DNA from: Octopus vulgaris | Taxonomy: Eukaryota | Direction: 5' to 3' | Assembly (NCBI GenBank): GCA_951406725.2 | Contig: OX597836.1 | Span: 37,882,001-37,946,000, forward strand | DNA: 64,000 bases | Part shown: positions 12,709 to 55,382 of the stretch, piece after piece | Layout: every line of letters begins with the position of its first letter | Position numbering within the stretch: position 1 is the first letter of the stretch | The notes under the pieces: generated by a model | The model's database searches: none | Told to the model about the DNA's origin: nothing | What the model saw: only the letters and a program-made list of their open reading frames with translations | Made by a program: the position numbers and the translations under genes

Positions 12709-12753
12709 CACACGGACTCGAGTTTCAGGGTATTGACCCGTTATCGGCGTGTG
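12709..12753 (-). ncRNA. Degenerate minimal type I hammerhead ribozyme motif
   Basis: Minus strand CACACG-CCGATAA-CGGG TCAATA CCCT-GAAAC-TCGA-GTC-CGTGTG: 6-bp stem I, palindromic stem III, GUC site, mutated core. Confidence 0.65.
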
Positions 12754-12849
12754 ACAATCATAGTTGTCGATGAGAAGTCGGTTCCCTTCACAAATACATA
12801 TACTTTTTCCAGTATCGATTGACACTGATATTGAAAAAATATATATATC

Positions 12850-13020
12850 TTGTTTCAGTCATTTGACTGCGGTCATGCTGGGGTACGGCCTTGAAGGGTT
12901 GTTTTTAGCCGAATAAATTAACCCCATGACTTCTTTTTAAGCCAAGTACTTATTCTATATTACGGGGACGTAAACACACCAACACCGGTTGTTAAGCGGT
13001 GGTAGGGAACACACAGATTT

Positions 13021-13051
<31 letters not shown>

Positions 13052-13170
13052 CACACACACAGGATTCTTTCAGTTTCCCTCTACCAAAGGTTCCACGCAG
13101 TGAGTCTGAACCCGAAACCATGTGGTTAGGAAGCAAGCTCTTACCACACAGCCACTCTCCAGCGCCTATT
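12850..13170 (-). mobile_element. SINE family B
   Basis: Reverse complement of the 15781-16190 family with an internal deletion. Confidence 0.85.
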
Positions 13171-13620
13171 TGCAGTGGCGGACTGGCCAGGTTGCCAGCT
13201 TGCCTGATGGAAAGTGGGCCCCTGCACCATTAGAATCCATATATGGGGGCCCATACCATCAAGTTTGAGAATTTTTTATTCACTCCTGGAAGAATGCATT
13301 GTTTCAGCCTGGCTGTGTTTGTAGACAGTTGAAAAGAATAATTTTAACAAAAAACAAAATATAAAAAATGAGAGCATTGTAAGTTGCGGGTGTCCCCCCC
13401 CCTTTCTAGTCGCAATTACCTATATATATATTGGCGCGGGGTGTATAAATATGCGTTTGTGTCTGTATATTTTATTTTTGTTTTACTTGGACTTTAACTA
13501 TGCCTGGGCATCTCATTCAAGTGTTTAGCCCAGCAAACTGACTCCAGTACTTATTTTTAAGTCTGGTACTTATTTTATCGGTCACTTTTTGTCGAACTGG
13601 TACGTTGAGGGGATGTAAAC

Positions 13621-14733
13621 GTTATAAACTATTTCACAAAACTATAAATAATACTTTTAGATTTTAGTTCATATATAATAATTATAAGAATAATTAAGTA
13701 AAAATACGTATCTTAAATTATAATTAACAAAAAAAATTTAAATACATACATTTTAATCAATTATCATATAAACTTCCCCATTATTTCTTAAATAAAATGT
13801 ATAAGTTAATTTTTCAAAGATATTTATGAACTAAAAAATATTTTAAATTAAAAACGTATAACTTAGCATTTATATGTCTAGATCTAATGTTTCACTTATT
13901 AAGGGAATAACGAAAGTACATATTATTATAATTAAATTCAATAGTAGAAAAAAATAAAATCTTTTCACTACTTATACTATAATATTTTACGTTACAAACT
14001 ATTTCACATAGCAACCACACTTAATGCTTTTAGATCATAGTTCACATATTATAATTATAAAAATAAGAATAATTAAATAAATGTACGTATCTAGATTATA
14101 ATTATCAAAAAATTCTAAAAATTAAAAAATTAGAAATCCATATTTTTTAAAATCAATAAGCATATGAATTGTATACTTATCTGTTCGAAGATATTTAAAA
14201 ACTAACAGCGTATTACTTAGCGTTCTTAAATTTACTTGTGAAAAAGTACATATTATTATTAAATTCAATCGTACAAAAAAATAATAACTTTTCCCTACCT
14301 GTACTATAATATTTTACGTTACAAACTATTTACAAATCAATCACACTTAATACTTTAAGATTTTAGTTCACATATGATAATTATAAAATAAGAATAATTA
14401 AATAAATGTACGTATCTAAATTATAATTAACAAATAAAGCAATTAGAAATCTATATTTTTTCAATCAATAAATATATAAATAAATGATCATACTTATCTT
14501 TCCGAAGATATTTATGAAATAAAATATAAAAAATTTCAAAACTAAAAACGTATTACTTAGTGTTTTTAAATTTTTTTTTGAAAAAAGTACTTAGTATTAT
14601 TATTAAATTCAATAGTACTAAATATAAAAACTTTACACTACCTATACTAAAATATTTTACGTTACAATCTAATTCACAAAGTAACCAAACTTAATACTTT
14701 TAGATTTTAGTTCACATATAATAATTATAATAA
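13621..14733. repeat. AT-rich diverged tandem repeat, about 3.2 units of 330-370 bp
   Basis: GTTA(C/T)AAACTATTTCAC-like anchor at 13621, 13991, 14318 and 14661 with colinear downstream blocks. Confidence 0.85.
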
Positions 14734-14739
14734 TAACAC

Positions 14740-14941
14740 TGGTGGAGATTGAAAAATGGCCTGCAACAATCTTATGTGACAAAGAAGCTTGGGTTATAAA
14801 AAACATTAAGTCAAACCCAAAGGCCTTTTTCCATTATGCCAAAGAACAGCCTCTGTACGCTGCAAGATAGGACCCCTCTTCCAAAAGGATGGATCCCTCA
14901 CAGATAGTCCAACAGGATCAGTGAGGTACTGAATGACCAGT
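14740..14941 (+). mobile_element. CR1/L2-group LINE internal fragment
   Basis: KNIKSNPKAFFHYAK...IGPL..KDGSLTDSP...SEVLNDQ, the linker preceding RT in CR1-like ORF2. Confidence 0.65.
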
Positions 14942-14944
14942 AGT

Positions 14945-15120
14945 AGCCATATTTCAAAGGTCCAGCCTTGTCATATTCTGTGTGATTGTTGAATCCCCCG
15001 AGAACTACGTTAAGTTTACCAGTGTCTGTAGAGTGCTCAGCCATTTCCACGTTAATTCCATGAGCAGGCAGTTCCGTTAACCGGATCAACTTGAACACTC
15101 GTCGTCGTAACCGACGGAGT
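14945..15120 (+). mobile_element. Dispersed SINE-like repeat segment
   Basis: CAGCCTTGTCA...GAGAACTACGTTAAG...GTGCTCAGCCA; related segments near 42290-42430, 56085-56170 and (reverse) 40800-40900. Confidence 0.55.
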
Positions 15121-15780
15121 TATAAGTAATATATGGACATACATTTGTATAAAGATGTACCAATATACTTGTATGCATACATGTGTGCGTGAGTATGTAT
15201 GTATATATGTATGTGAACTTTATATTGAGCTATATTCCATCAATAGAAACGCATTTTCACTGCGATTTGCCTTGGCTAAAATTCTCGCTTTAGGCAAAAA
15301 ACGTAAACACATCTAAGTCATTTCAGAATGCTCCCCTATCAGTCCCTATGGACTTGTAGATGCATTTCAAGCTTTTTGTGGTCTCTTAAGTGTCAGATGC
15401 CAGATATTTTATATTGGTTTCTTATAAGAAAGCTGTCTTCCAGTCAGCTTAGAATTGTCACGCTTGGTATCTTGTACTGAATAGAGCAAAAAGGCTGAGA
15501 AAGTGTCTACAACTCCACAGGGAGTGCCCTGAATAGACTTTAGTGTATTTACACCACTTTGTTAGCTCTTCACTGTCAAGAATGTCGACCCTTATTCTGC
15601 AGTCGCCGATCGATAGATGTGCAAATCTCACCAATCTGGAAGATTGTAAGATCATAGTTGAATCCCTTTCCTTCTCTCTGAACATGAAGCAAAAATTATA
15701 AAAAATACTATCATCCATTAAAGACTATGAACTTGATACAATTTCATTGACACTTAAAGTATTCAGTAAGTATTATAACT

Positions 15781-16190
15781 GTCGCAGGAGTGGCTGTGTG
15801 GTAAGTAGCTTGTTTACCAACCACATGGTTCCGGGTTCAGTCCCACTGCGTGGCACCTTGGGCAAGTGTCTTCTACTATAGCCTCGTGCCGACCAAAGCC
15901 TTGTGAGTGGATTTGGTAGACGGAAACTGAAAGAAGCCCGTCGTATATATGTATATATATATATGCGTGTGTGTGTTTGTGTGTCTGTGTTTGTCCCCCT
16001 AGCATTGCTTGACAACCGATGCTGGTGTGTTTATGTCCCCCGTTACTTAGCGGTTCGGCAAAAGAGACCGATAAAATAAGTATTGGGCTTGCAAAAAGAA
16101 TAAGTCCCGGGGTCGATTTGCTCGATTAAAGGCGGTGCTCCAGCATGGCAGGAGTCAAATGACTGAAACAAGTAAAAGAGTAAAGAGAGA
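15781..16190 (+). mobile_element. SINE family B, full length (tRNA head plus CORE-like domain, octopus OR2-like)
   Basis: A-box TGGCTGTGTGG, B-box GGTTCAGTCCC, CORE-like GGCACCTTGGGCAAGTG, internal (TA)n(TG)n, tail (GTAAAAGA)n. Confidence 0.9.
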
Positions 16191-16829
16191 GTATACCATT
16201 ACACTCCAACTTCCAGTCAATAGAAATGCTGTATTTTCTATCTATCTGTTTTAACTGTCTTTTGTACCACTATTATACAGTGCACTCTGCTCCTCTGAGA
16301 TAGCTGATCTTGGTTCAGCTTTCCTTCTGCTCAAATAATCACTCACCAAGCTCCTTCATTTTCAGAAGGTCAATCTTTTGGAATTTCCACCTTGAACATA
16401 TTGTTCCACAATTGTAAGGTAGACCTGTTTTAGATCAGCAGGTTTGTCTAATGTTTCAGATAACCCGAGGTCATGGCCAGTGATGTACGTGTGCATTTGA
16501 GGCGATGATATCTACTCACCTCCTCTCTTAAAATTGCTGGCCTTGTGCCAAAATTTAAAATTACTAAAGCGGCGACCTGGCAGAATCGTTACCGCGCCGG
16601 GAAAAATGTTTTGCAGTATTTCGTCTGTCTTTACGTTCTGAGTTCAAATTCTACCGAGTTTGACTTTACTTTTTATCTTTTCAGTCTCAATAAAATATGT
16701 TCCATTTGAGCACTGGAGTCGATGTAATCGATTAGCCAGCTGCAATGCTCTACCCCCTGAGCTTACTGGCCTTTTGCAAAAATTAGAAAACCTCTACACT
16801 CTGCTTACCATTTCAGTGAGTAGTGGAAG

Positions 16830-18659: not shown

Positions 18660-20551
18660 ACACATCGTGAAATAAAGAAAGGAGTTACCTGTATCGTGAT
18701 GTTTCGCACCGGGTATCAAGATGCCGACATCACGACAGCAGCTCAATGCTCTATGAACACAGTACATTCTGAGATGGATAGCTGCAACAGAGACTACGAA
18801 GACGTAGCTAGCAGGAAGGGACACAACAGGCGTTTCTAACTGCGCCTGCAAGCTGGGGTTCATCCAACAGCTGCAGGACAAAGCGATGGAGGAGCCAAAC
18901 AAATGAATCCGAGCTTTGGTGAAAGAGATGAATATTGGAGTTGCCCTTAGTGAATACCGTCGCTACCACTCGTACATAACGCGCAAGGGACAAATTCTGA
19001 CATCCAAGGCTAGGGAGAATCGCTTGAGGAAAGTAAAGATGATTTGGTTCTTCTCAGATGGAAGGAACTTCTGCCAGAACCAGTTGAACAATATGCAGAA
19101 GAATAGATGGCTTGCCTACAATCCATGTGATGCCCCACATATCATAAAATCCACGTCCCCTCAAACTGTGATGGTCTTGGAACTTCTGCCAGAACCAGTT
19201 GAACAACATACAGAAGAATAGATGGCTTGCCTACAATCCATGTGATGCCCCACATATCATAAAATCCACGTCCTCTCAAACTGTAATGGTCTTGGAACTT
19301 CTGACAGAACCAGTTGAACAACATACAGAAGAATAGATGGCTTGCCTACAATCCATGTGATGCCCCACATATCATAAAATCCACGTCCTCTCAAACTGTA
19401 ATGGTCTTGGAACTTCTGACAGAACCAGTTGAATAACATACAGAAGAATAGATGTCTTGCCTACAATCCATGTGACGCCCCACATATCATAAAATCCACG
19501 TCCCCTCAAACTGTAATGGTCTTGGAACTTCTGCCAGAACCAGTTGAATAACATACAGAAGAATAGATGTCTTGCCTACAATCCATGTGACGCCCCACAT
19601 ATCATAAAATCCACGTCCCCTCAAACTGTGATGGTCTTGGAACTTCTGCCAGAACCAGTTGAATAACATACAGAAGAATAGATGTCTTGCCTACAATCCA
19701 TGTGACGCCCCACATATCATAAAATCCACGTCCTCTCAAACTGTAATGGTCTTGAAACTTCTGCCAGAACCAGTTGAATAACATACAGAAGAATAGATGT
19801 CTTGCCTACAATCCATGTGATGCCCCAGATATCATAAAATCCACGTCCCCTCAAACTGTGATGGTCTTGGAACTTCTGCTAGAACCAGTTGCACAACATA
19901 CAGAAGAATAGATGTCTTGCCTACAATCCATGTGATGCCCCACATATCATAAAATCCACGTCCCCTCAAACTGTGATGGTCTTGGGTGTGTCTCCAGTAA
20001 GTGTAAAGTCATGCCGTACCACATTTTTGAACAGGTTCTTAGGCTCAAATCAGACGAGTGTGAAGCGGCTGGTGACTGTGGACAAACCCTGGCTGGAGAC
20101 GGTTACTGCTGGAAAGCCAGATGCGATGAATTAAAATTCAGTTCCTTACAATACCTCCTGAAAGAGTCGGAGGTGGTTGTCGGAGAATTTCTATAACTTC
20201 ACCAGCCCCAATTTCTGGCCTCATCATTCTCCCAATTGTAATCCCATGTGTGGAGTGTGGTTGAGAAAGACACTAACCGCTCTGCCTGTAACACCAAGAT
20301 CGAATTGGTGACCAAGATCAAGGAGGTGTTTGAAGATCCTTTCATGGACACAGTGAAGAATGCATGCACGAGGTTTCGGAGCCGTGTTGAGGTGGAAGCT
20401 GAGAGTGGCTACTTTGAATAAACTGTTATATTCAGTCACAATCCAATTGAAAATTTTTTATTTCTTTTTTTTTAATATATTTAATTTTTTGATGATATAT
20501 AGCATTTTTCTTTCCTTAATGCAAACTATCAAATTTAACCCGACTACCCTG
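18660..20551 (+). mobile_element. Tc1/mariner-superfamily transposase pseudogene (maT-like) with right terminus
   Basis: GQILTSKARENRL, IWFFSDG, PQTVMVLG, FTSPNFWPHHSPNCNPM; ends CCCTG|TA at 20551. Confidence 0.85.
19064..19983 (+). repeat. 8 x 115-bp tandem array inside the transposase gene
   Basis: Units start at 19064, 19179, 19294, 19409, 19524, 19639, 19754, 19869; a few SNPs between units; no spacers. Confidence 0.97.
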
Positions 20552-20585
20552 TAGGTATATATATATTATTTATTTATTTGTTTAA

Positions 20586-20729
20586 AGGTCACAATACATG
20601 TATTGAAGTGTTACAAATAGTTTCATGTGTTGAGAAAATTCTAACATATGATTTGCGCCTGAAGAATATATTAGAGTTTTCTCAACGTATGAAACTATTA
20701 GCAGCGCTTTGTTACATGTATTGTGACCT
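20586..20729 (+). ncRNA. Inverted repeat containing a hammerhead-like motif (20655-20707)
   Basis: GCGC-CTGAAGA-ATAT...GTAT-GAAAC-TATTA-GCA-GCGC; the inverted arm reads GAAAC TATTT GTA ACAC; terminal 17-bp IR AGGTCACAATACATGTA. Confidence 0.6.
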
Positions 20730-20802
20730 GTGAATAAATATTTATCTCTCACCAGATGGAGTACTTTTTTTTTGTTTAATTTTCTATCACGGAACAACAC
20801 AT

Positions 20803-29744: not shown

Positions 29745-29793
<49 letters not shown>

Positions 29794-29818
29794 AAATTAG
29801 AACAAACAGCAAAAGGCT

Positions 29819-29890
29819 GTCATTATAGTACTCGGAGTTTCGAATGCCGGAGCAAAGAGCTACGATACATTCTCATCGGCTATTAATGAC
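29819..29890 (-). ncRNA. Minimal type I hammerhead ribozyme motif, CCGAUGA core variant
   Basis: Minus strand GTCATT-A-ATAG CCGATGA GAATG...CATTC GAAAC TCCGA GTA CTAT-AATGAC: 10-bp stem I with one bulge, 5-bp stem II, GUA site. Confidence 0.75.
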
Positions 29891-30717
29891 AACAGAGTAC
29901 GATGATGACAACCTTTTACTGTTTGTTTTTATTTATAACATATATGAATAATCCTCGATTTCTCTAATATCGAGGTCTCGCTCTTTTGTTGTTACATTTT
30001 ATATATATTATTTATATATATTATTTTATTTTTCTTGTAGCAGTCATTTGACTGTGGCTATGCTGGAGCACCGCCTTTAGTCGAACAAATCTACTCCAGA
30101 ACTTCTTTGTAAGCCGAGTACTTATTCTATCGGTTTCTTTTGCCGAACTGCTAAGTTACGGAGGCGTAAACACACCGCATCTGTTGTCAAGTGATTGCCT
30201 TTCATCCTTTCGGGGGTCGATAAATAAAGTTGCAGTTACGCACTGGGGTCGATGTAATCGACTTAATCCGTTTGTCTGTCCTTGTTTGTCCCCTCTGTGT
30301 TTAGCCCCTTATGGGTAGTAAAGAAATAGGTATTTCGCCCATCGCTACGTTGTGTTTAAATTCTGCTGAGGTCGACTTTACCTTTAATCCTTTCGGGAGG
30401 GGGTCGATAAATTAAGTACCAGTAAAACACTGGGGTTAATGTAATCGACTAGTCCCCTCTCCCACAATTTCAGGCCTTGTGCCTTTAGTAGTCAGGATGA
30501 TTATTATTATTATTAATATTATTCGAACTGGCAAAATTTTTCGCACGCTGAGTAAAAATGCTTAGCGCATTTCGTCTTTTTTTACGTTCAAATTCCGTCG
30601 AATTTGCCTTTCGACCTTTCGGGTCTATAAAATAAGAACCAGTTAAACCCTGGGGTCGATGTAATCGACAATCTCCCTCACATAAACATTTCAGGCCTTG
30701 TGCCTATCGTAGAAAGG

Positions 30718-31343
30718 CCCCCAGCACCAAGAAAAACGACAACTAAAAAACCAGTAGAAACACCAACACCGTCATCATCACCAATAGACACAGCAACAAC
30801 ACCGCTACCAGCAGAACCAACTGAAATCTTTCGCCTTGCGGATGAAGCAGACCCAACAGCCATCCCCTTTCCGGATCAAGATTGCTCGGATTGTGCGAGC
30901 ACTGATACCGAGAAAGGGGAATGGCACACAGTGCCTACAAAACAGAAAAGGAGGAGAAAACAAAAGGACACACAGGGGAAGCACGAACAAATAGTGCTTC
31001 CCAACATCAACATCACTTTCGACACCACTACTGCCACACACACCAACACCAACAGACACGATTACAGCAATCAACACAAAAAAATGAAAAACTCGTTACA
31101 TACCTAAAAGACAAAACAAATACAAACATAACAGATTTCGTTATACCAACACACAACACACCACCAGCACACATTCTCACAATAAAAATCAACGCAACAA
31201 CATACAGTGACATAAAACAAATATTCCCTAACGATGTGGGATCGCTAGGGAAAAGTTTCTCAAAGAAACTATATAAAAATATTGTGGAAGCACCCGTGCA
31301 AAAGCACAAGGGAGCCACCCCCACCACCAACAACAGTAAGTAG
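30718..31343 (+). pseudogene. ORF1 C-terminal part of the Tx1 LINE (probable frameshift in the A-run near 31080)
   Basis: Pro/Thr-rich segment and EWHTVPTKQKRRRK basic motif; stop at 31343, 42 bp before the ORF2 ATG. Confidence 0.6.
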
Positions 31344-31385
31344 AGCCTTTTTCTCCTTTTATTTTTTTCTTTTCACCTTTGAAAC

Positions 31386-34300
31386 ATGGCAAAACTTAGA
31401 ATCGGTTGCTTGAATGTGAGAGGCCTCGTGTCACCTTGGAAACAGGGTCACCTGTTAGACGACCTGAGGTTTCATGATGTGGATGTAGCAGCCATCAGTG
31501 AAACCAGGCTCTCCGACCCGCAAGAACTCGCAGCCCTTTTCGGCGGATACGAGATATTTCTATCTCCGTGTCGGCCGAGAGCGGGCGGTGGTGGTACTGC
31601 GGTGTTGTTTCGGAAGGGCCTGGATTTGAAAATAAGGACAGTTTTCCTGGATCCGGAAGGTAAGTTGGTGGTCCTCGACGTAGAAGGTAGTGACGACGGT
31701 GCTTTCAGACTGCTGGCTGCCTACGCTCCGACAGGAGCAGGGCAGTCGGATTATTTCAAACGTCTGGAAGTTTTCCTGGGAACGTCACGCACTCTAGTGC
31801 TAGTTGGGGATTGGAACGCTGTCTTAGACGAACGTTTCGATCGGGTGGGCAGGGGAGCGTCTGATAAGAGAGGAGGAGGGTGCAAGAGCCTCGCCAACCT
31901 ACTCGGACGCTTTCAGCTGTCCGACAGGTTTCGACTAGACAACCCGAATGTGCCAATGTGGACTTGGACCAATCGCATCGGGTCGTCTAGATCGTACTTA
32001 GATACAGTGTTTTGTAGGCCAGTGGATAAGGACAGCATAGGGTGTCCACAATTCCACCTGGTCGACTACACGGACCACAAATTCGTGATCTGTACGGTCG
32101 ACTTAGATAGGCTGCATAGACAGGGACCCGGATACTGGAAGCTGAACGCGTCGCTAACGGCATGCAAAGCTTACAGAGACCGGATTAGTTTATTAGTTAA
32201 GCGGGCGCTCACGGGGGCAATCATCAACAACAACTGGTGGTTTGCCCTCAAGAGAGTAATTAGAGTAGAGTCGATTAGATTTCGTAAGACTCTAGCTATT
32301 GAACGTAGGAAGAGAGAGCGGGATTTAGTTAAGAAACTAGACGAGGCTCTTGAGACTGGCATCGCGACCGACGTGTTGGCGGCAAGGTTGGCCCTCGACC
32401 AACACTTTGACGCCAAACACGAAGGCTGCGTTGTCAGAGCTAAGGCACGTTCGCTAAGCGGGCAGGGGACTAGAGCCGCTCGATGGGCCCGCATGGCGGA
32501 GGCGAAGCGAGGCAAAAGAGTTACCATTCGGTCTTTGGTGGACCAGAACGGACGCGAGGTTACCGAACCGAAGCAGATGTGTACGGTGTTTCAGCGGCAC
32601 TTTGCTCAACTGGGACGAGCGGTGGAACGCACAATGGTGCAGACTTCGGTATGTACCTGGACGGCCTACCGCAACTCTCGGACAGCGAGGCAGAGTGCTG
32701 CGAAGGACCGATATCTGCCTGGGAAGTGGAGGAAGCGATGAAGAGTTGCACGAGAGGTAGATCGCCGGGTTTGGATGGTCTGCCCTACGAGCTTTACACT
32801 TCAATGCCAGACTTGTTTGCGGGCCTGTTGGCAAACGTCTACTGGAACTGGCAGCAAAACGGGAGAATTCCTGCTTTTGTCTGTCGAGGGGTGGTGGCTT
32901 TGCTAAAAAAGGACCCAAACAAGGGGGACGTTATAGGAAATTTTCGGCCCATCACTCTGCTCAATGCAGAGTTGAAGATTTTGGCCAAGGTGCTAGCCAA
33001 GAGATTGGCGCTTGTCGTGGACAAGCTGGTCGGCAAGACGCAGACATGCGCCGTGCCGACCAGGTCAATACACGACAACCTCCATCTCATGCGCTACATC
33101 ATAGAGAGGGTAGGTAACGACGCTGGCGCGGGTGGGGCTTTGATCAACTTAGATCAGAGTAAAGCCTTCGATAGGGTCGACCATCGGTACCTGGCAGCTG
33201 TTCTCAAGGCAGCCGGCTTCGGTCCAGTCTTCCGCGGGTGGATCGCTGCTTTATACAGCAACATCTACTCGGTGATACGGGTGAACGGTCACCTTTCAGA
33301 ACCGTTCGACATCTCGCGTTCGGTCCGCCAAGGATGCCCTCTCTCCTCCTTCTTGTACATATTGACTCTCGAGCCATTACTGCGCAAGTTGGAGGCTTTG
33401 AGGGGTATCCCGCGCGATCTAGGAGGTGGAAACAGCGTGTCTGCCTATGCCGACGACGTCACCGTGATGGTGTCGAGCCACAGGCACATTGGCCTGATTA
33501 GCGAGACACTAAACGAGTACGAAGCGGTGACAGGGGCAAAGATTAACGTGGAAAAGTCTGTGGGCTTGCAACTGGGCACCTGGAGAGGCAAGCCCATGCC
33601 GTCCAACAGCGTCGTAGGGCGCTGGACAGACGGACCCGTTAAACTGCTCGGGGTCTGGTTCGGTCCGGACCTCCAGGTGGATAAAAACTGGGAAGAGGTG
33701 ACAAGCAGGGTGGCACGTCTCACCCAGAAATGGGCCGAGAGGAAGCTGTCCCTGAAAGGTCGAGCGGAGGTGGCGAATGCGTACATCGCATCCGTCATCT
33801 GTTACCGCTTGACCGTCGTCCCTTGTCCCAACCGCTGGTTGGCCAAGCTGGTACGCCTGATCTTCGACTTTTTGTGGAAGGGTCAGGTGCCACTGGTCAG
33901 GCGATCCATCTGCTGTCAACGACCGCTAAACGGAGGCCTTGGCATGCCGTGGTTACTGATGCGCAGACATCTCAAGCGTTTCCTAGACGGTGATCGGGTG
34001 TGGTCGTCTTTTGTCAGACGCGACTTTCCGCAGCTCGTCTCTTTGACAGAGCTGCAGACCTGGATCAAACGTAGACCGAGAAAGGGCGCTTGGCACCTCG
34101 AGTGCCGTCAAGCTCTCTCCGCCCTCCGCCAGGCGGGCAATGCGATCGGTTTCAGCTCCACTCTAGCGTTCTATAGAGGGTTAGTGGAGGAAAAATGCGA
34201 CGACGTTCTCGGGGAAACTCTAGGCGTTGACGATAATGAACTGAGCGGTCTATTCGGAAGGACTTTCGGGCCGGGGCCAATGGATAATTTCCAGAGGTCG

Positions 34301-34795
34301 CTCGCCTGGCAGGGCTACCGAGGGGCTCTGCCTGTTCGGGATAAACTCTACCGGCACGGAAGTGCCGTCAGCCGGGCCTGCCCGAGGTGTTGCCAGGACG
34401 ACGAAACCGTTCTGCACGCACTCGTCCAGTGCCCGAGTATTGCTGAACTATGGGTTTATGTCGAACAGCTACTGTCACGTGTAGGACGGATCCGGCTATC
34501 AGCCGAATCCATAGTGAAGATTTCCCCGCTGACCTCCTTTAACAAGGAGGGCAAGGCCGTTTTCTTGTGCCTAGTGGCTGTGGCGAAAGAGGTTGTATGG
34601 TGGACCCGTTTGAAAGGGCTAAAGTCAGACACTTTTCTCTTTGGTCAAGGCCTCATCAACTTTTTCAAGTTTCACTTGAAAAGGAAGATGAGGTTAGAGA
34701 GGAGAGTGCTGTCCGATAGCAAGTTTTCTGAAAGGTGGGTGAATTGTGCGAGAATGGCCAGTATAAATGGACCAGTTCTCAGGTTTCGCCTGTGA
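31386..34795 (+). pseudogene. ORF2: AP endonuclease, reverse transcriptase and zf-RVT-type zinc finger; one frameshift near 32612
   Basis: CLNVRGL, ISETR, VGDWNA, TDHK, GYWKLN; SPGLDGL, FRPITLLN, LDQSKAFD, VRQGCPLS, AYADD; CPRCCQDDETVLHALVQC; frames 31386-32741 and 32483-34795 join at RHFAQL/GTSGG. Confidence 0.95.
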
Positions 34796-37094: not shown

Positions 37095-37450
37095 GTGTGT
37101 TTGGTGAGGAAATGACCAGTGAGTGGTCAGCTGGAAAATGTTTTAAACAATTTCGCAGTGGCGATCTGAGCCTTGAAGATCGTGAGCGTAGTGATCGCCT
37201 ATCTGTCATCGATGACGGTCAAATGAAGACCGTTATTGAGAAAGATCTACGTAAAACCACTCGAAAACTGGCAAAAGAACTTCAAATTAGCCAGAAAACT
37301 ACCTGCAACCATTTGCATGCAATCGGAAAATCCAAAATGTTCGACGATTTGAATGAAAATCAGAAAATGCGCTTCTTCTCCGTGACCAAACCGATCCATT
37401 TCTAGACCGTATTGTAACTTGCAATGCAAAGTGGATACTTTACAATAATA
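37095..37450 (+). mobile_element. Mariner (Mos1/Hsmar-like) transposase fragment
   Basis: VFGEE...FKQFRSGDLSLEDRERSDR...TTRKLAKELQISQKTTCNHLHAIGK and FLDRIVTCNAKWILYNN (IVTxDEKW motif decayed). Confidence 0.9.
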
Positions 37451-37463
37451 AAAGTGATAAAGT

Positions 37464-37499
37464 CTTTTACGTTTCGAGCCTACGCTCTTTAACAGAAAG
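37464..37499 (-). ncRNA. Degenerate ultra-minimal hammerhead-like motif
   Basis: Minus strand CTTT-CTGTTAA-A-GAGC GTAG GCTC-GAAAC-GTA-AAAG. Confidence 0.5.
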
Positions 37500-37572
37500 G
37501 AATATGAGGAAATAAACAGAGAGATAATTTTTTAAAACTTGTGGATTTAGCGATTAATCATGGTGACTGGTG

Positions 37573-37638: not shown

Positions 37639-39858
37639 TTGAAAACAACTTGCACATGCAAGTGCTACCAGTTGAGAGCTCCGTATACCGGAAGCCAGCG
37701 AGTGTATGGGGTTATCAGGAGAGAATGCGCGCCGTTTCGGGGCCTACCTCTCGACGGCATCAATGCGCATCGGCCCACAAAACTGATATCAAGCCCCGCT
37801 TGATAGATCAACTGGTTATCAATATTCTTCTAGCCATCGCTCATCTTCTCTCTTTAATCAAATCCACTGGCTAACCTTTTCCACTGTAGTTTGGATATCG
37901 GTCATGGTGGTATTTACTTTACAATGAGTTAGGCCCAACGATAACAACAGTCGTCTCACACTGTGTCCAACAAACCCTCTACACCCAACTTCGATTGGAA
38001 AATGCTCCGCTATCCAGCCTGCGTCTTCACATTCCTCGAGGAGGTTTACATAACGGTCAATCTTTCGAGCCCGAGCGGAGTCCATGCTATCTTCATGAGG
38101 AACCGTTAACTCGACTAGATTCACAACTCTCTTTCCTTCACACCACATTAAAATGTCCGGTTGTTTCGTTACTGGGATGGGAAAGAGTCCATGGCACCCT
38201 GGTAAATCTGCAGTCACATCCCAGTAGCCGTTCCACTTTTCATCGCTCACATGAAATTTGTTGTTCTTGAAATGGATCCGCTGTCTTGAGCGCACGAAGG
38301 TAATGAAATCTCTAGATGTTACTTTCAACGGTTTTTTCCACTGTTGTTGCGATCAGTTTGGTTTTTTATAACATTATAGATAACCTTAAGGACCAGGTTG
38401 TGTCTCCATGTATACCTATTCAATGATAGTGAACACTTGGAAAGAATATGTTTCAGTGTTCCGACCTTTCCGCATTTACATAGAACATTCTCTGAGACGT
38501 TACATCTAACTAGATCTGCAGGTGATGGCAAGACATCATAGGATGAATGAATCAGAAAACTTAGCCGAGATGTGGCCCATCTCCATATCTCATCCCAACT
38601 TATTTTTCTCTCAGCAATATGTTCCTACCATCTCGTTATCTGACCTTATTTCAAATGAAGCTGTCTTCTCTCTGCTTCCCTCGTTTTTATACTGTTGCTA
38701 ACAACAGACCGGCGTTCGCTCCACTTCATACTTGCAAACGGTCTGAACCGATCTGTACCAAAACCAAGTCTCTTCCGATGAATTTGCGTTGCACCCACCA
38801 TATCTCGATGTGTAAGAAAGACAGGATGTCATCAGTCTCTGATTCTGCTTTCCACTTCCTGGCTATTTTCACATCTGCTGGATTACGCCTGATTTCCCAT
38901 GCTTTTCAACTCTCTCAGAATCATCACCGTTCGTACCTTCCCCAATTCATAAATTTCGACTATTGACGCCAGTGATAACTGCAACGAGCCTCTTTTACGA
39001 TAAAGAGCTGAATTGCTCAATATCCGAGGTAGGCTTAGCCACTTTCTAATGAACAAACTACATTTTTGTTCAATGTTTAGAACTCGTGACAATGCTACTT
39101 CGTCTATTAAAAGTGGCCACGAAAGTCACGGATACAAGCCGAACTATAAGCACCAAATTTTATATTTATCTGATAACTTTGAGTAATCAATTGCTGATAT
39201 TCCAATCTCGGCTTGTTTCATATTTTCCATTCCGCTACTCCTATCTGACAATGTGCCAGCATATACTCGCCCTAAGCTCTTGACAGGCTCTTCTTTGACA
39301 GTTGGAATGCTTGCTTCAGCTATTCGAAACTGAACTTTTTTCTGCACTCCCTTAACAAACGTCAGACTACGCGACTGTTTTGCTCTAAACCGCATTCTTG
39401 ACCACCTCACAAGCTCGGCTAATCTCAAGAGGGCACCCTGCATGATTTGCTTGTCTGTTGATAGAAGTGTCACGTCATCCATGACGGCTTTGTTAAGCGA
39501 CTGTACTTAGGCGATTTGTTCCGAAAAATCCACGGCTTTCAAAATCATCTCCATGGCTAAGATAAACCACGTGACAGGTATTGTGCAGCCAGCAGCAATG
39601 CCAATCTGTTGCAAAATCTCCAGCTGTAAACCTCATCTCGAAACTGTCATAATATACCCTCATTAATTTGGTCACTTTGTCTGGAATGTGGAAGTGGTCC
39701 ATGGCTCTCATCAGTAATTCATGTGGCACTGAGCCATATGCATTAGACTTCTCTTGTTCTGTTTGGCATCCTGGATCGCTTTCCAAATCGGAAAACAGTG
39801 TTCACCGCATCCAGGGATCCCAAGGATTCCGGCCTTTTGGACAGATTTATATCTATTG
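37638..39858 (-). mobile_element. HERO-clade non-LTR retrotransposon (RT, CCHC, RLE), decayed and 5'-truncated
   Basis: SVQKAGI.G.PGC.EH, SNAYGSVPH, MDDVT, KSLGR, CKCGKVGTLKHILSKC...YTWRHN, PDIL...VELTVPHE...RKIDRY, FPIEVGCRGFV; 3'UTR abuts (CA)n. Confidence 0.92.
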
Positions 39859-47297: not shown

Positions 47298-47364
47298 GTT
47301 ACTCGGTTTCACGTTCCCGTTCGTCGGACGAACGGACGAACGGGAACGTGAAACTCTAAGTAAC
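47298..47364. ncRNA. Palindromic pair of hammerhead-like motifs
   Basis: 20-bp perfect IR (47306-47325 / 47335-47354); minus arm CGT-CCGACGA-ACG GGAA CGT-GAAAC-CGA-GTA-ACG. Confidence 0.6.
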
Positions 47365-47519
47365 AGCTTATGTTATATTTAGATTTAACCCATTAGAAAT
47401 AATGAAGGGAACAAGACTTAGCTTTGACCAAAGGAAATTTTTCGTAAAATGCTACTGGAAGTTTGAAAACGCAGTCGAAGGGCAAAGACAGCTTGGGGGT
47501 GGGGGCTTCAAACAGACGC

Positions 47520-47945
47520 ACCTTCGTGACTTACCATCACTCGAATCAGAGATAAGTTTGTAACAAATGGAAGTGTTCAAGATGTTCACAAGAAACGTTC
47601 TACAAGTTCGCGGACATCGACGAGTTCTACAAAGCAAGAAAGGGTATTAGAAATGTACAGCCAGAGTTCCAGAAAATCTGTGCTGCATGCGAGTCGTGTG
47701 ATAGGAATTTCAAGATCAAGCGTCCGTTGCATTTTGAAAGACTACCATTGGAAAAGTTACATTCCAAGAATACTCCATTCTCCCAATTGGGACGATCTGG
47801 ACCGAAGAGTAGAGTCTTGAGAGTTGTGCTTGGCATGATGAGTAGAAGATCCACACGTTCCAACAAAGATTGGTGGAAGTATTGAGGCTACATTCAAATT
47901 AAATGGTTCAATTAACTATCAGATCTGTACCTACTGGAGACCTTT
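47520..47945 (+). mobile_element. Tc1/mariner-superfamily transposase N-terminal fragment
   Basis: IRDKFVTNGSVQDVHK...SSRKSV...GISRSSVRCILK...[18 protein letters not shown] (SDEAxFxLxGxVNxQN motif decayed). Confidence 0.75.
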
Positions 47946-47949: not shown

Positions 47950-48570
47950 CCGGCAATTTTAACCAATCGCTGGCATCCATTTAGGTAAATAACATTCTGT
48001 GCCGTATGAATATGTCCCTCCTTTAAGAAACAGATTGGGTTTATTTACATTTGTGAAGAAAAAAGATACCCTTCCCCTAACCCTAAATCTAAAATAGATT
48101 GAAATGCAATAGATCGATACTAGGGTTATAATTATGGGTGACAATTTCATACGCCACCGCTACGGAAAATGGGATTTTTTTCTAGCGGTGTCAAATGAAA
48201 ATGTCACCCATAATTATGGCCCTAGTATCGATCTATTGCATTTCAATCTATTTTAGATTTAGGGTTAGTTAGGGGTTGGGGAGGGTATCTTTTTTTCTTC
48301 ACAAATATATATAAATCCAATCTGTTTCTTAAAGGAGGGACATATTCATTATGCACAGAATGTTATTTACTTATATGGACGCCAGCGATTGGTTAAAATT
48401 GCCGAAATGCTCGAAATTAAAGACGAAATATGTTACAACCTATAGAATTTTCTCAATAAAGCCAAGAGAAAATGATGTTTTATAAACACATTCTACCAGT
48501 ATACGAAGTTTAAATTTTTTTAGTTACCTAGAAATTATGTTGAAAACTGCCGTTCAAACCGAAAAGATCC
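47950..48570. mobile_element. MITE M1 subfamily, head-to-head inverted dimer
   Basis: 47950-48170 is the reverse complement of about 48175-48405; one TIR at 48570, none at the centre. Confidence 0.88.
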
Positions 48571-49355
48571 GCATTGTGCAAACAACGTAAGCTATTGTAA
48601 GCTAAGCAAGAGTAATTTATGTAAGCACTCTTCCTTGTATTATTTATACTTGGTCATGCGATTTTTTCTGAAAACTCAGTGCAACAACAGTGAATGTATT
48701 ATCAAGACAAGTTTGGTGTAACTGTTAGAAGTCTGTTATAAGCTGACAACGGTTCTGAGCTTGAGTACCTGATGATCTTTGTGTTGTTCAAACTGTATTA
48801 GATATGTTTATTGTTCACCGGAATTTAATTATCTCAACCTCCGACACATTGAAAACATTTGCCTTCTCCACCCACATTTTTCAAGATAATATCTTTTCAT
48901 TTCATTATTATCTCAAATAGGACATTTGATACGCTGGTCGTCTCACAACGGAAGACTGCACTCACTGAAAGTTCACTCCTTAATCTTTAGATTAACCAGA
49001 ATAAATCATTGAGCTTGCGAATGAGTTGAAATAAAGGACCTACTTATGCGCATCCTTTCTTTAGAAAAAGAAAAATGTATCAGTAACATTTGGTGATGAC
49101 GTTGCAACGATGTATTTATTTTGTCAGCAATAGATACTAGCTAATAATATTTCATTGGTATTATTGACGTGACAATTGTTTTCTTCGCGTTTTTTACCAT
49201 GTTTTTTCTTAGTTTTCATTGCCCAGAGCATGATCATCGTTATAATTTTGTGTGATTATCATGATTATTGCTGTAATATATATATATATATACATATATA
49301 TTTTTTTGTTTTTTGTTTTTTCTAACTTGGAAGACATTTTGTTAACAACACATTT

Positions 49356-49764
49356 GGATCTTTTCGGTTTGAACGGCAGTTTTTTCTCGCGGTGCCATAT
49401 GAATTTGTCACCCATAATTATGACCCTAGTATCGATCTATTGCATTTCAATCTGTTTTAGGGTTAGGGGTGGGGGGAAGGGTATCTTTTTTTCTTAAGAA
49501 ATGTAAATAAACCCGATCCATTTCTTAAACGAGGGACATAGTCAAACGGCACAGAATGTTTTTTACGTCAATAGACGTCATTGATTGGTTGAAATTGCAG
49601 ATTTTGAAGAAAACAACAAATATCTTACAAACTATAGAATTTTCTCAATAAAGCCAAGAGAAAATGATGTTTTATAAACACATTCTACTAGGATACGAAG
49701 TTTAAAAGTGTTTAGTTATGTGGAAATTATTTTTTAAAAACTGCCGGTCAAACCGAAAAGATCC
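49356..49764. mobile_element. MITE M1
   Basis: Both TIRs; perfect 8-bp TSD ACACATTT. Confidence 0.95.
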
Positions 49765-49799
49765 ACACATTTTTGCAGGGACAAAAGAAAAAAAACATT

Positions 49800-50152
49800 A
49801 AAAGTATAGAAGATCACATTATCGAATAAAAACCCATAAACACCCAACTAAGAAAACAAATAAAAAGAAAACAAGGGAGGGAATTTAGTAGAAGAAGATG
49901 GGGGAGAGAATAACGAGTTATATGCCCCAGATCAAATTAGCGTGTTTAGCCAGCGGAACCTCGTGAACATGATTGCAAAGGCATTGCTGCGGAGCATGGT
50001 CAGTGACTTTCGCTGCAACAGCCACCTCATCTATGGAGGTTCATTTGTCAGACGGACTGCAGTTATCTCAATTTTGAAGAGAAAATCAACAGTGCGGGGT
50101 CCGCGAACACTACAGGTCTCAGCGGCGACTGGCACAAACTGATAGCAATTGT
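49800..50152 (-). mobile_element. CRE-like (RLE) non-LTR retrotransposon 3' end
   Basis: Minus strand YQFVPVAAETCSVRGPRTVDFLFKI...NEPP*MRWLLQRKSLTMLRSNAFAI matches the FxPxAxETxGxxG...LxQRxSxxxxRGNA C-terminus; T-rich 3'UTR follows. Confidence 0.75.
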
Positions 50153-50910
50153 AATTAAACTATTGTTGCTCTCCCTTCAGCATGAAACCTTTAAATGGAA
50201 ATAAAATTTCTTTGTGTCCTACAAAGTGGCATAACTAGAGCATTTTCCGCCCGGGACAGCCCTTGAGTGAATCGCCCCTTTCCCGGGCCCCCAAGTTTAT
50301 ACAGATCTATATAGCACACCTCTATGACAGCGCCGAGGACGGACCGCTACGCTACTGACTCTAGAGCATTAAATCCTGCTTTACCGATATGATTATGCTC
50401 ATATTTGTGATGTAACTATATTTTCAGACCTCATTTACCCAATAATTAGAATAAAATGTATCATGCCCTTTATTACCCAACCTATTTCCCTGTGAATTCA
50501 CTTCGTGGGTTTATATCAGCGGTAAGCATTTTGTTGTTTCTGTGAGGTGGATACTTCAGTCAACAAATTTAGCAGTGAAAACCTGAAATCAAAAAACATT
50601 AATAAATCAAGATTGACATCCTGTCTCAGTAATTAGTATTTCTAAGAAGCTAGTCACCTATTTCGGGGTGACAAGAAATAGGACCTACAATTTAAAACTA
50701 GTTTATTCACACTCTAGCTACCTTTATACATCTTTATGCTATTACTGCTAGTAAGTACAAAAGTAAAAAATAGCTTTGATCAGATGTCAGTTGAGCTTAC
50801 GCAGGATATTTTCCAAAATATTTGCAGTTACTTATGTCGGTTGATGTGTGTGTGTGTGTAATCTGTTACTTGTTTCAGTCATTAGACTGCGGCCATGGGT
50901 ACCGATTTGG

Positions 50911-51212
50911 GGATCTTTTCGGTTTGAACAGCAGTTTTTAAAATAATTTCCACGTAAATAAACACTTTTAAACTTTGTATACTGGTAGAATGTGTTTATA
51001 AAACATCTTTTTCTCTTGGCTTTATTGAGAAAATTCTATAGTTTGTAAGATATTTGTTGTTTTTTTTCTTCAATTTTTGCAATTTCAACCAATCAGTGAC
51101 GTCCATTGAGGTGAAAACATTCTGTGTCGTGTCAATATGTCCCTCGTTTAAGAAACAGATTGGGTTTATTTACATTTATGAAGAAAAAAAGATACTCTTC
51201 CCCCCACCCCCT
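50911..51212. mobile_element. MITE M1, truncated (one TIR)
   Basis: Left TIR and body present; stops after CCCCCCACCCC. Confidence 0.9.
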
Positions 51213-51449: not shown

Positions 51450-51693
51450 ATCATCATCATTTAATGTCCACTTTCCATGCTAGCATGGGTTGGACGATTT
51501 GACTGAGGACTGGCAAACCAGATGGATGCACCAGGCTCTAATCTTATCTGGCAGAGTTTCTACAGCTGGATGCCCTTCCTAACGCCAACCACTCCGAGTG
51601 TGTAATGGGTGCTTTTACGTGCCACTGGCACGAGGGCCAGTATGGCAGTACTGGCAACGGCCACACTCAAATGGTGTTTTTTACATGCCACCT

Positions 51694-51695
<2 letters not shown>
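51450..51695 (-). mobile_element. SINE family D 3' part with (GAT)n tail
   Basis: Reverse complement of 57338-57674. Confidence 0.8.
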
Positions 51696-51732
<37 letters not shown>

Positions 51733-54409
51733 GCTTCTTTCAGTTTCCGTCTACCTAATCCACTCACAAGGCCTTGGTCAGCCCAAGGCTATAGTAGAAG
51801 TCACTTGCTCAAGGTGCCATGCAGTGGAACTGAACTTGGAACTGAGTGGTTGGGAAGTAAGCTTCTTACCATGCCTACACCTATTACAAATTATTAATGA
51901 ATATCTTTTACAATCTACTTGTTTCAGTCGTTAGATGGTAGCCATGCTGGAGCACCGCAACACTTATTTTTAAAGCCAGGTACACATCCTATCAGTTTCA
52001 CTTCCAAAACTCGGCAGTTCAGAAAAAGTAAGGACCCATTAGATATTCAAGTCCTAGATACATTATATTTATTTTTAATGAGTTTCAGTCATTAGACAAT
52101 AGTCTTGCTGGGCAATGCCTTGAAAAATTTTAGTCAAACGAATCGACTCCAGTATTTAATTTTTTTAGTGCCTGGTACCTATTCTATCGGGCTCCTTTTG
52201 CCGAACTGCTACACTACGGGGATGTAAACACACTAACATCAGCTGTCATGTGATGGTGAGGACAAACACAAAGATACACACACACATACATATATATACA
52301 CGACGAGCTTCTTTCAGTTTCCGTCTACTAATCCACTCACAAGGGCTTTGGTTGACTCGCTACTATAGTAAAAGACAGTTGCCCAAGATGGCATGCACTG
52401 AGACTGAACCAGGAACCATATGGCTGGGAAGCAAATTTCTGATACCCCTGTGCCTTGGGTCAAAAAAAAAAACAAAAAAAAAAAACAAGAAAAAAAAATG
52501 GGTATTGATGGTATGTCTCTGATCATAGACTTAGTATATTAGGGCTGACTTCAAGGTTCCAAAACAACAGGAACATAGCAAGTACGATCTCACAGAGTGT
52601 AGGGTGAAGCGGAGTGCTTGACCTGTTAAAAATAACAGCCAAATCCCAAATTCACCCCATTCTCTTGAGACAGGTGGAACACATTAGATAATGTAGTTGT
52701 AGACAATATCGGCAAGTGGTAGAGTGGTCTGAGTAGTACAGTGTGTCATGATTAGAACACCTTCGTTCATAATTAGGTCTATTTACTTTGTGCTAATCTA
52801 GAATTAAACACAAGCAAGAACAGTTGCAGCAACAGCAGCAGCAGCAGCAGAGCTGTAACATTACAAATACACACCAAGTATGTGCCACATAAAACTAAGT
52901 GTTCATCTCAGTAAGGAACAAACTATATTTACCCAGTCTTATTACAATTCAAGATATGTTCAACTCTTACACTTCGTCTCTTTGTATGTGTGCCAGCATA
53001 TGTGTGTGGACGAGTGTGTGAGAGAAAATGAAGAGAAGAATGAAAGAGAGAGAGTGAGAGAGGAAAAGAGAGTGGAGGAGAGAATGCATAACATTAATTG
53101 TAAGCTTCTAAATAGATGTAAGTGCAAAATAGCTTTTGATTTCCGATCCCATTTCCTTTTAAGTTCTAGTGAATTTGGATATTGTCAAGAACTTAAACAA
53201 TGGCCTTCACCGACGGTATTTAAACAGTCATCACCCATATATACACACACTCATACACACGCACACACACAAACATACACATACACACGCATGAATGAAC
53301 ATCATCGTTTAATGTCTGTTTTCCATGGTAGTATAGGTTGGACAGTTTGACAAATATGTACATACATATGTATGTATGTATGTATGTATGTATATGTGTG
53401 TGTGTGTGTGTATACACACATGTATATATGTGTGTATATATACACATGTATATTTATTTATATGTATATACATGTGTGGATATAATTATACAATATATAT
53501 ATATTTATATATGTATATATAAATATAAGTTCAGCAAAATTTAGATTCAGATGAATATGGTACTTAAGTCAAAGGCACCAGAATTTTGTATGGTATTATC
53601 CATATAAATCCACGGGGTGATTACAATCAAAATAAGCAACATATATACTTGTTGCTTATTTTGATTATATATACACATTTACATGTAAATATCTTTTATC
53701 AACCTATGCCTTTAGAGTTTAGTCAGCGAAATCAACCCCAATATAAATACTTCTGTCCAGACCCAATTGCCAAACCATTTAGTTACAGTGACATTAATAA
53801 AACAACATGAATTGTCAAGCAATATGTGAGGTACAAACTCAAATATACACATACATACATATGTGTGTATGTATACACACGCAAAAGGCTTCTGCATGAT
53901 TTCTATCTACAATATTTACACACAAGGCATTAGTCAGACCAGGGCTATTAGTAGAAGACATATTCCCTAGGGACTAAACTCAAGACCGTGTGAATGCCTT
54001 GCCTGAACAAACTTACCAATATACTCACTATTCATCCAAGGCTCCGATCACATACCATACACAATTCAGGTTCAACATACATAAATTCAATGCAACCCAA
54101 TTTGTCCCCCCCCCCCCCGACAGACACTGCTCTATTTAATGTTATATCAAAACAAGTCTAAAAAGGAAAAAAATAAATACCATCACATTCAAATAAAATC
54201 TGAACGAATTTCAAGGGATACCAGAAAACCTCCTGTACTTTGACACATCTCAATCAACAACTCCCTACTTGAATAGGCCATGATACCACAAAACTTGACA
54301 TCAAAATGATTTTAATCATGGCCTGGGCCAATCTTTGGCCAAAATATAAATATGTCTAATACATATATATATATATATAATAGTAGAAGACTCTTGCCCG
54401 AGGTCCCAC

Positions 54410-54462
54410 AGCGTGGCACCTCGGGCAGTGGGGATTTGGTAGACGGAAACTGAAAGAAGCCC

Positions 54463-54518
<56 letters not shown>

Positions 54519-54732
54519 GTGTGTATATGTTTGTGTGTCTGTGTTTGTACCCCCAACATCGCTTGACAACTAATGCTGGTGTGTTTACGTCCCCGTAACT
54601 TGGCGGTTCAGCAAAAGAGGCCGATAGAATAAGTACTAGTCTTACAAAGAATAAGTCCTAGGGTCGATTTGCTCGACTAAAGGTGGTGCTCCAGCATGGC
54701 CACAGTCAAATGACTGAAACAAGTAAAAGAGT
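54410..54732 (+). mobile_element. SINE family B, 5'-truncated
   Basis: Matches the family B consensus from GCGTGGCACC to GAAACAAGTAAAAGAG. Confidence 0.88.
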
Positions 54733-54977
54733 ATTATTATTATAGGTTTTTATAGTATATTTATTTTTCTATATGGTGTGAATAATGTCTTTCACTATTG
54801 AATTGCTTAATAGAGGTTTTTCTCTCTATTATATACATATATTATATATTGTGAAATTTGATTTACAATTGCTAAATTGAATTTTTCCCTGTAAGTTTGG
54901 AATTATATTCCCTATTATTATATTATTATTATATATATATATTATATATAACATATAGCAATAGAAATTTGGATAAT

Positions 54978-55101
54978 ATCTTACATCTGTTTCAGCCAAG
55001 AGGCAAAAATACCTCATTCTACCTTTATCCCACCAGTGGACTGAAGTATTTAGTAGATGAAATTGAGGTACTTGGCTGTTTCTCTAGGTTTCATCAGAGA
55101 T
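54978..55101 (-). ncRNA. Inverted copy of the 55259-55382 hammerhead motif
   Basis: Minus strand ATCT-CTGATGA-AACC...GGCT-GAAAC-AGAT-GTA-AGAT; one mismatch in stem II and one in the stem III palindrome. Confidence 0.7.
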
Positions 55102-55258
55102 TTTAGAAAGTACATAAGGTCGTTATAAGTATATATACACAAACACACACATATACATACTTTTACATATACATACATATACATAAATATACATAGATGT
55201 ATATGTAAAAGTATGTATATATTTGTGTATTTATATTTGACTTTTATGACTTTTTAAA

Positions 55259-55382
55259 ATCTCTGACGAAGCCTAGAGAAACACCCAAGTACCTCAATTT
55301 CATCTACTAATTACTTCAGTCCACTGGGGGGATAAAGGTAGAATGAGGTATTTTTGCATCTTGGCTGAAACAGCTGTAAGAT
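55259..55382 (+). ncRNA. Type I hammerhead ribozyme motif with a ~90-nt stem II insert
   Basis: ATCT-CTGACGA-AGCC...GGCT-GAAAC-AGCT-GTA-AGAT: intact core, palindromic ACAGCTGT stem III, predicted cleavage after 55378. Confidence 0.8.

Follow-up and report, generated by a model that had tools for sequence, protein, structure and literature searches.

Hammerhead motifs in a 64-kb stretch of the Octopus vulgaris genome as probable 3′ ends of Penelope-like elements

Seven hammerhead motifs beside microsatellites

The window analysed here is a 64-kb stretch of the Octopus vulgaris genome (C23:37882001–37946000 of a 2.8-Gb, 227-contig assembly, which was searched as a whole). It contains seven motifs with the layout of a type I hammerhead ribozyme, which we assign to six repeat families (A–F) and compare with those of Penelope-like elements (PLEs), retroelements that encode a reverse transcriptase (RT) and a GIY-YIG endonuclease (EN). 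All seven layouts claimed in a first-pass annotation of the letters alone were found where it had placed them (Table 1). As it had noted, they lie close to microsatellites: each is at most 167 nt from a TA, TG or CA run, and for comparison 33% of window positions lie at most 200 nt from such a run. The inverted pairs that it reported are real; they occupy four loci (20.6, 29.8, 47.3 and 55 kb) rather than three. The insertions of families D, A, F and B are two-armed and inverted, and those of C and E are single-armed. The annotation had further stated that the window holds no RT. As written, this is incorrect, because a near-intact L1/Tx1-type long interspersed nuclear element (LINE) at 31383–34795 (+) carries APE (PF03372), RT (PF00078) and zf-RVT domains in two overlapping long frames. 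The statement holds for a Penelope RT; no tblastn match to Penelope RT or EN better than E = 0.05 was found in the window.

The descriptor used to count motifs (stem I, CYGANGA, stem II with an optional bulge, GAAAC, 0–6 nt, GUH, stem I′) was refined once the motifs had been seen, and block-wise dinucleotide shuffles (n = 100) served as its control. With zero, at most one and at most two core mismatches, it returned two, four and five loci, against shuffle means of 0.02, 0.16 and 1.32, respectively. The observed count was matched by none of the 100 shuffles in each of the three settings, so that the motif rate exceeds the shuffled rate that the annotation had named as a check. The first, untuned scan (40 shuffles) gave 3 against 0.025 and 4 against 0.575; its third, loose setting gave 2 against 1.2, no excess over chance.

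The core, stems and cleavage site are intact in only two of the seven window copies, at 29825–29883 (family A) and 55259–55382 (right arm of B), and the remaining five (C, E, D, F and the left arm of B) are damaged. The A copy has an intact core of the U4C variant, CCGATGA, and a stem II base of 6 bp. In the D copy the cleavage triplet is GCA in place of GTA, the C copy has a private G8A change from the family consensus CCGATGA, and the F motifs (47298–47364) are partial, being cut off at the core with the 5′ strand of stem I lost. In predicted read-through folds, the probability of stem I is 0.00 at all four two-armed loci, 0.58–0.71 at C and about 0.15 at E; in the two-armed loci, the ribozyme is predicted to be masked by the inverted arms. 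Because the members of the inverted pairs lie on opposite strands, a dimer in cis is impossible for them. The window copies are likely to be fossils. The two intact cores would be compatible with host use, that is, with some copies being ribozymes that cut a read-through transcript. However, both intact copies are in two-armed loci in which the fold is predicted to be lost, no same-strand dimer partner is present in the window and the divergence of the copies from their families looks neutral; we consider host use very improbable.

Six dispersed families with hammerhead consensus sequences

Each window motif falls in a dispersed, genome-wide family, which bears out the first-pass estimate of about six distinct ribozyme-bearing families. 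First-look candidates, whose counts are lower bounds, numbered at least 831 for A (29.8 kb), 988 for B (55 kb), 2,114 for C (12.7 kb), 1,515 for D (20.6 kb) and 3,465 for E (37.4 kb). A DNA search with the 47.3-kb locus returned only the adjoining mariner-like element; a pattern search then found family F, with 5,163 genome matches to a 20-mer with one mismatch allowed (control, 0).

Majority sequences were derived from whole-motif copies (n = 28 for A, 35 for B, 22 for C, 17 for D, 25 for E and 11 for F). All six have a stem I of 4–6 bp, a stem II of 3–7 bp and a self-complementary stem III, with stem sequences that are unrelated between families. The core (CUGANGA...GAAA...NUH) is canonical in B and D and has U4C in A, C and F. 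The intact string CYGANGA..GAAAC..GTH occurs in 13 of 28 A copies, 19 of 22 C copies, 10 of 17 D copies, 8 of 11 F copies and 1 of 25 E copies; the count for B (27/35) is loose because a second GAAAC sits inside its stem II. The first-pass annotation had asked whether the family consensus sequences retain core and stem covariation: core and stems are kept, in E with U6, and covariation is seen between families only.

The chance explanation, in which the motifs are fortuitous matches inside hairpin-rich repeats resembling miniature inverted-repeat transposable elements, draws on the loose scan setting, the lack of an Rfam hammerhead match and the inverted-repeat nature of the loci. The shuffle counts, the linkage to PLE proteins described below and the consensus sequences, which are better hammerheads than the window copies, argue against it. 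The consensus sequences refute it, and we regard it as barely credible.

By their layout, the A, B, C, D and F motifs are minimal type I hammerheads of the PLE type, and the family consensus sequences match the minimal hammerhead consensus of PLEs given in supplement 2, part 2, of PMC4209133. The metazoan hammerheads of the PLE pseudo-long terminal repeat (pLTR) in that work (Cervera and de la Pena 2014), as far as it was consulted, are similar in their type I layout, 4–6-bp stem I and short palindromic stem III, in falling into many unrelated families per genome, mostly as single motifs in truncated PLEs, and in forming inverted pairs 100–700 bp apart. The window families differ from the motifs seen there in the U6 of E, the U4C of A, C and F and the 97-nt branched stem II of B. 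Octopus is absent from those of its supplements that were searched. For hammerheads in octopus or retrozymes in cephalopods, the literature covered yielded only Craig et al. (2021) and a squid genome with 235 Rfam hammerheads.

Further hammerhead families appeared in the fetched loci, namely a two-armed family in locus L250, a diverged relative of C in L259 and canonical-core relatives of E in L093 and L136; the genome therefore holds more than six.

Table 1. Positions of the hammerhead motifs and of the insertions that carry them, by window coordinate
Feature	Position	Strand	Remarks
Family C copy	12542–12838	−	Less than one unit, 5′-truncated; 3′ end at the short end of the family, then (TA)n
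Family C hammerhead	12709–12753	−	CACACG/CCGATAA/GAAAC TCGA GTC; palindromic stem III ACTCGAGT
Family D insertion	20574–20800	+	Two-armed; 3′ end of a Hydra-clade PLE (by motifs)
Family D arms	20574–20649; from 20646	−; +	Inverted short arm; hammerhead arm; tail about 65 nt before (TG)n
Family D hammerhead	20655–20707	+	GCGC/CTGAAGA/GAAAC TATTA GCA
Family A insertion	29788–30000	−	Two-armed; 3′ end of a Hydra-type PLE (by motifs)
Family A arms	29788–29895; from 29896	−; +	Hammerhead arm, ends at (CA)n; inverted arm; tail about 60 nt
Family A hammerhead	29825–29883	−	ATAG/CCGATGA/GAAAC TCCGA GTA; stem III ACTCCGAGT
Family E fragment	37451–37571	−	Both ends truncated; Neptune-type PLE pLTR (by motifs); adjoins (TG)n and a mariner-like remnant
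Family E hammerhead	37464–37499	−	CTTT/CTGTTAA/GAAAC GTA; minimal stem III ACGT
Family F locus	47298–47380	Both	Head-to-head hammerhead 3′ halves; 3′ end of a Hydra-type PLE (by motifs)
Family B insertion	54944–55595	54944–55204 −; 55202–55595 +	Two-armed, inverted; AT-rich family
Family B hammerhead, left arm	54978–55101	−	Disrupted second pair of stem II; stem III (AGAT) no longer palindromic
Family B hammerhead, right arm	55259–55382	+	Intact core CTGACGA; palindromic stem III ACAGCTGT

Coding sequence upstream of families A, D, E and F

Upstream RT and EN sequences were identified by tblastn against the open reading frames (ORFs) of this genome and by motifs; a Pfam search of three Hydra-type pieces returned no PLE-relevant family. 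The adjacent ORFs that the first-pass annotation had proposed to look for were found elsewhere in the genome: in A, D, E and F, the hammerhead is preceded on its own strand by PLE RT with a C-terminal GIY-YIG EN, the evidence being weakest for F. Since these families run upstream into PLE coding sequence, their window copies are 5′-truncated pLTR ends. The annotation had called the elements non-autonomous, a term that fits C and is not supported for A, D, E and F, whose longer copies carry RT and EN. These four also bear the hallmarks of EN-positive PLEs, namely 5′ truncation, an inverted arm, an optional tail and microsatellite targets, although the window copy of E is without the inverted arm.

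Of 14 non-window loci of family D, seven have same-strand Hydra-type RT/EN no more than 1.55 kb upstream, joined to the hammerhead by continuous alignments of 831–995 bp. For family A, a probe covering 450–1050 bp upstream of the hammerhead recovered 20 loci, one of them its own source. Hydra-type EN lies directly upstream of the probe in 17 of the 20 (two loci overlap), and the A hammerhead is also present downstream on the same strand in eight, all of which have the EN match. In family F, five of 19 loci have same-strand Hydra-type matches upstream. A Neptune-type ORF in L137 was considered as the parent of F and rejected, as the upstream sequence differs in the other 19 copies. In family E, L130 and L146 align continuously for 1134–1239 bp upstream, across the EN, and seven of 38 instances have an upstream EN match, which in two may belong to a neighbour.

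Clades were assigned from motifs and by-eye comparison with the supplement of PMC8557442, as far as consulted, rather than from a tree; by these motifs, A, D and F appear to be Hydra-type and E Neptune-type. The diagnostics of the Hydra clade given there are a DKT motif and a CxCx5C linker. In family D, the former is found in L131 and the latter in the ORFs of L074 and L084, and the RT resembles Hydra-1_Obim by eye. The C-terminal EN-positive PLEs of the Hydra clade, including Hydra-1_Obim (Craig et al. 2021, PMC8557442), share DKT, CxCx5C, (TA)n targets and a 3′ hammerhead with the octopus families in the parts of that work compared. The A, D and F hammerheads differ from the Hydra-1_Obim motif in its File S2, and these are therefore other families; the 3′ untranslated regions of A and F, of about 0.9 kb or more, are also unlike Hydra-1_Obim. 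For the Neptune clade (CX2-5CxxC linker in PMC8557442), the EN of family E is similar in its CX4CxxC linker and in the CxxC inside its GIY-YIG core, which also has the YIG motif, and the element has TA-flanked ends; E, placed by motifs alone, differs from the clade as described there in its A6U hammerhead core.

The 60–70-nt tails of D and F share, by eye, a CTC..GAGTAC(T)TTTTT-like motif (window 20745–20800; L109 and L111), which is possibly an RT-binding or start signal.

Family C, a 352-bp retrozyme-like unit

All 16 loci of family C are composed solely of one 352-bp non-coding unit with end-to-start junctions, that is, in circular permutation. The window copy is 96% identical to unit positions 72–352 followed by 1–16, and other copies are 96–99% identical to the window copy. 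At least two full units stand in tandem in L101, six arms exceed one unit and the GC content is 43%. The TA-flanked 3′ ends fall at unit position 13–16 in 13 arms, at 59–62 in ten and elsewhere in one (L158 and L243 being one place counted twice), and each two-armed locus has one 3′ end of each kind. Family C thus has the make-up of a retrozyme, a non-coding unit of 150–450 bp with one type I hammerhead and tandem copies, and from its sequence it reads as a young, retrozyme-like, non-autonomous parasite of PLEs.

The metazoan non-LTR (long terminal repeat) retrozymes, in the portions of the reports consulted, are comparable: the unit of 352 bp stands against 350–390 bp in mussel (Cervera and de la Pena 2020, PMC7229834), and the 43% GC, the single type I hammerhead per unit and the head-to-tail and greater-than-unit copies are shared (PMC7229834; 10.64898/2026.07.22.740005). 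Unlike their long arrays, C is found mostly as one or two units; its insertions are two-armed, of PLE type, with a tail of 45 nt. A non-autonomous PLE origin of retrozymes is argued in the part seen of Li, Clavereau and Pollet (2026, 10.64898/2026.07.22.740005). The two-start insertion footprint of coding PLEs, which C bears as well, supports PLE proteins as the agents that mobilise animal retrozymes.

The annotation had in effect taken all six families for non-autonomous, self-cleaving retrozymes. This is true of C; B, over the length traced, is long and lacks coding sequence, and the window has no PLE RT. A, D, E and F, however, continue into PLE RT/EN and showed no tandem unit. We judge this explanation improbable for the set as a whole.

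The C unit is covered by contigs of three runs guessed to be RNA and of one other, with the 352 joint present in the three. As genomic tandems produce the same joint, these contigs were not used as evidence. A near-complete PLE ORF in L101 was examined as the parent of C and rejected: a (TA)n run separates it from the C copy that precedes it, no C sequence comes after it and the C tail always returns to the C hammerhead. This ORF (L101:1946–4210, C3) is of Neptune type and nearly intact, with one stop; it is followed downstream by a hammerhead-like motif whose core may be U3-A8, and a 95% identical EN occurs in L090.

Family B, a long AT-rich family

In both arms of the B insertion, stem II is 97 nt long and branched. 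Tracing covered some 1.8 kb on the upstream side and 0.44 kb on the downstream side, so that the family is at least 2.2 kb long; over this extent it does not lead back to its own 3′ end. PLE fragments in L156, L247, L248 and L260 were rejected as its parent, as they are not continuous with B, and a pair of copies at C1:51.64 Mb was rejected as a tandem unit, being a local 1.6-kb duplication.

The substituted core of family E

The core of family E has A6U throughout the family (CTGTNGA), and the window copy has a private G8A in addition. A 31-mer of the motif with positions 6 and 7 left open gave 14,734 exact genome matches (control, 0). The first 100 matches listed all lie in the initial 18 Mb of C1; among them, T occupies position 6 in 96, A in two, C in one and G in one, so that A6 is not conserved in this family; position 7 among the 96 U6 matches listed is T in 42, A in 25, C in 18 and G in 11. 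Because the 31-mer enforces the rest of the motif, copies were also gathered by the downstream flank only, with a hidden Markov model run on a set of 192 sequences, the window plus 191 loci, that had not been retrieved for E. This collection gave 15 matches, ten with a parsable motif, and all ten have U6 (four of these copies were in the training set of the model and six outside it).

When 34 of the 38 instances were grouped by eye into subfamilies, the states of U6 and N7 tracked the groups, whose consensus flanks are 67–88% identical upstream and 69–87% identical downstream. C3, G5, G8, GAAA and GU are fixed across the subfamilies, N7 varies and H17 is A or U. Relatives with an E-like GAGC/GCTC stem II and other loops have A6 (three instances), for which reason U6 looks derived. 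An alternative parse with the core TTGAAGA was rejected, as stems I and II then fail to form and the GAGC/GCTC relatives have canonical A6.

A natural A6C hammerhead, slow in Mg2+, is described in the portions consulted of PMC3088659 and PMC7151607. No A6U hammerhead was found in the published reports covered, although this coverage is incomplete and an earlier description is possible; the 44 aligned PLE motifs seen in supplement 2 of PMC4209133 all have A6. The E core may be a new natural ribozyme variant. Because N7 and H17 are free and the rest of the motif is held across subfamilies 12–33% apart, we propose, tentatively and as something short of probable, that E is a Neptune-type clade of at least 14,700 copies whose fixed-U6 hammerhead would still be selected as a ribozyme, cleaving only with the element protein or an unusual metal ion. 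If so, the variant would be a direct test of why PLEs keep slow hammerheads. The role of the PLE hammerhead can be tested in this lineage, which is highly successful and has a substituted core position.

Alternatively, the motifs may be kept as protein-binding or promoter folds, with cleavage lost and the A6U of E a tolerated catalytic loss. Hammerhead-dead mutants did not hinder the insertion of a lizard PLE in vitro (PMC11167929), and U4C (A, C and F) and A6U (E) are at positions at which changes lower activity (PMC3088659, and PMC7151607 for A6C, in the parts consulted). However, the positions that vary in E are those that are free in a catalytic hammerhead, and the fixed ones hold across subfamilies whose flanks have diverged. 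We consider this alternative unlikely, although it deserves some weight; it is compatible with the PLE origin of the motifs.

A probable Penelope-like origin and its proposed mechanism

Taken with the literature, the feature is of a known kind, PLE pLTR hammerheads together with one retrozyme-like family, to which the A6U clade is the addition. Very probably, the seven motifs are the hammerheads at the 3′ ends of six PLE families, four of them coding elsewhere in the genome and one a 352-base non-coding element, and the window copies are truncated, likely dead remains beside TA and TG repeats.

From the motifs, families, pairing, two 3′ ends, ORF linkage and greater-than-unit copies observed here, we infer the following course. 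A PLE RT/GIY-YIG protein would nick both strands of a TA-rich target, reverse transcription would start at two fixed sites in the element RNA about 45–70 nt apart, and both products would usually stop early, leaving a short-ended and a tailed arm in inverted orientation. Because of this early stop, only the end with the hammerhead would be left. Tandem transcripts of the source elements would be cleaved by hammerheads that form dimers via the palindromic stem III, probably helped by protein, and the 352-nt family C would be copied in trans, from tandem or circular RNA, by a borrowed PLE protein. In vitro, both strands are nicked by the lizard PLE protein, and the two internal sites from which it begins reverse transcription define the tail; the protein also assists its hammerhead, mutation of which leaves insertion unimpaired (PMC11167929). 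PLE insertions with 5′ truncation, inverted arms, tails and a microsatellite bias are described in the part consulted of PMC8557442, and weak cleavage of minimal PLE hammerheads, as dimers, in those of PMC4209133 and the review PMC6765202.

Several observations weigh against this attribution. The family samples are the best 15–30 matches and are biased to the window copy, and an Rfam scan of the window gave 143 matches at E ≤ 5, none of them to a hammerhead family. Covariation is confined to comparisons between families. In A, D, E and F, every linked ORF seen is interrupted by stops or frameshifts, and no active parent was seen. Adjacency of an ORF can mislead, because PLE families accumulate one inside another in common (TA)n runs; the links first drawn from L101 to C and from L137 to F both proved to involve neighbouring families. 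The coding link of F is carried by two continuous alignments that reach the EN match. For B, three extension rounds over the distances given above found no linked ORF, and its 5′ end was not certainly reached.

The core finding is ordinary for a PLE-rich invertebrate genome, yet dense, with six families in 64 kb; the A6U clade is of more consequence. The first-pass description of a hidden layer of self-cleaving elements was overstated: such features of PLE fragments are described in the part seen of PMC4209133, and in most window copies the motif either carries mutations or is predicted to be sequestered in another fold. For annotation, the analysis provides three undescribed-looking Hydra-type families, one Neptune-type clade and one young retrozyme-like parasite, as judged from their sequences.

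Other elements in the window

ORF1-like remnants of the L1/Tx1-type LINE lie at 30631–31343. A degraded non-LTR element lies at 37858–39506 (−); its RT-like and restriction-like endonuclease-like segments were recognized by eye, and Pfam gave no match. Tc1/mariner-like remnants at 47378–47600 (+) and 37250–37450 adjoin the F and E loci, and family F takes the place of the 5′ end of the former copy. Tandem repeats comprise a 115-bp array at 19064–19985 (8.0 copies, 97% matches) and, at 10599–11081, an abundant short interspersed nuclear element, which we take to be of octopus type, in a 173-bp tandem of 2.8 copies. A multi-copy repeat family occurs at 48278–51189, 58961–63213 and 6140–6345, in direct and inverted orientation, with copies 83–94% identical.

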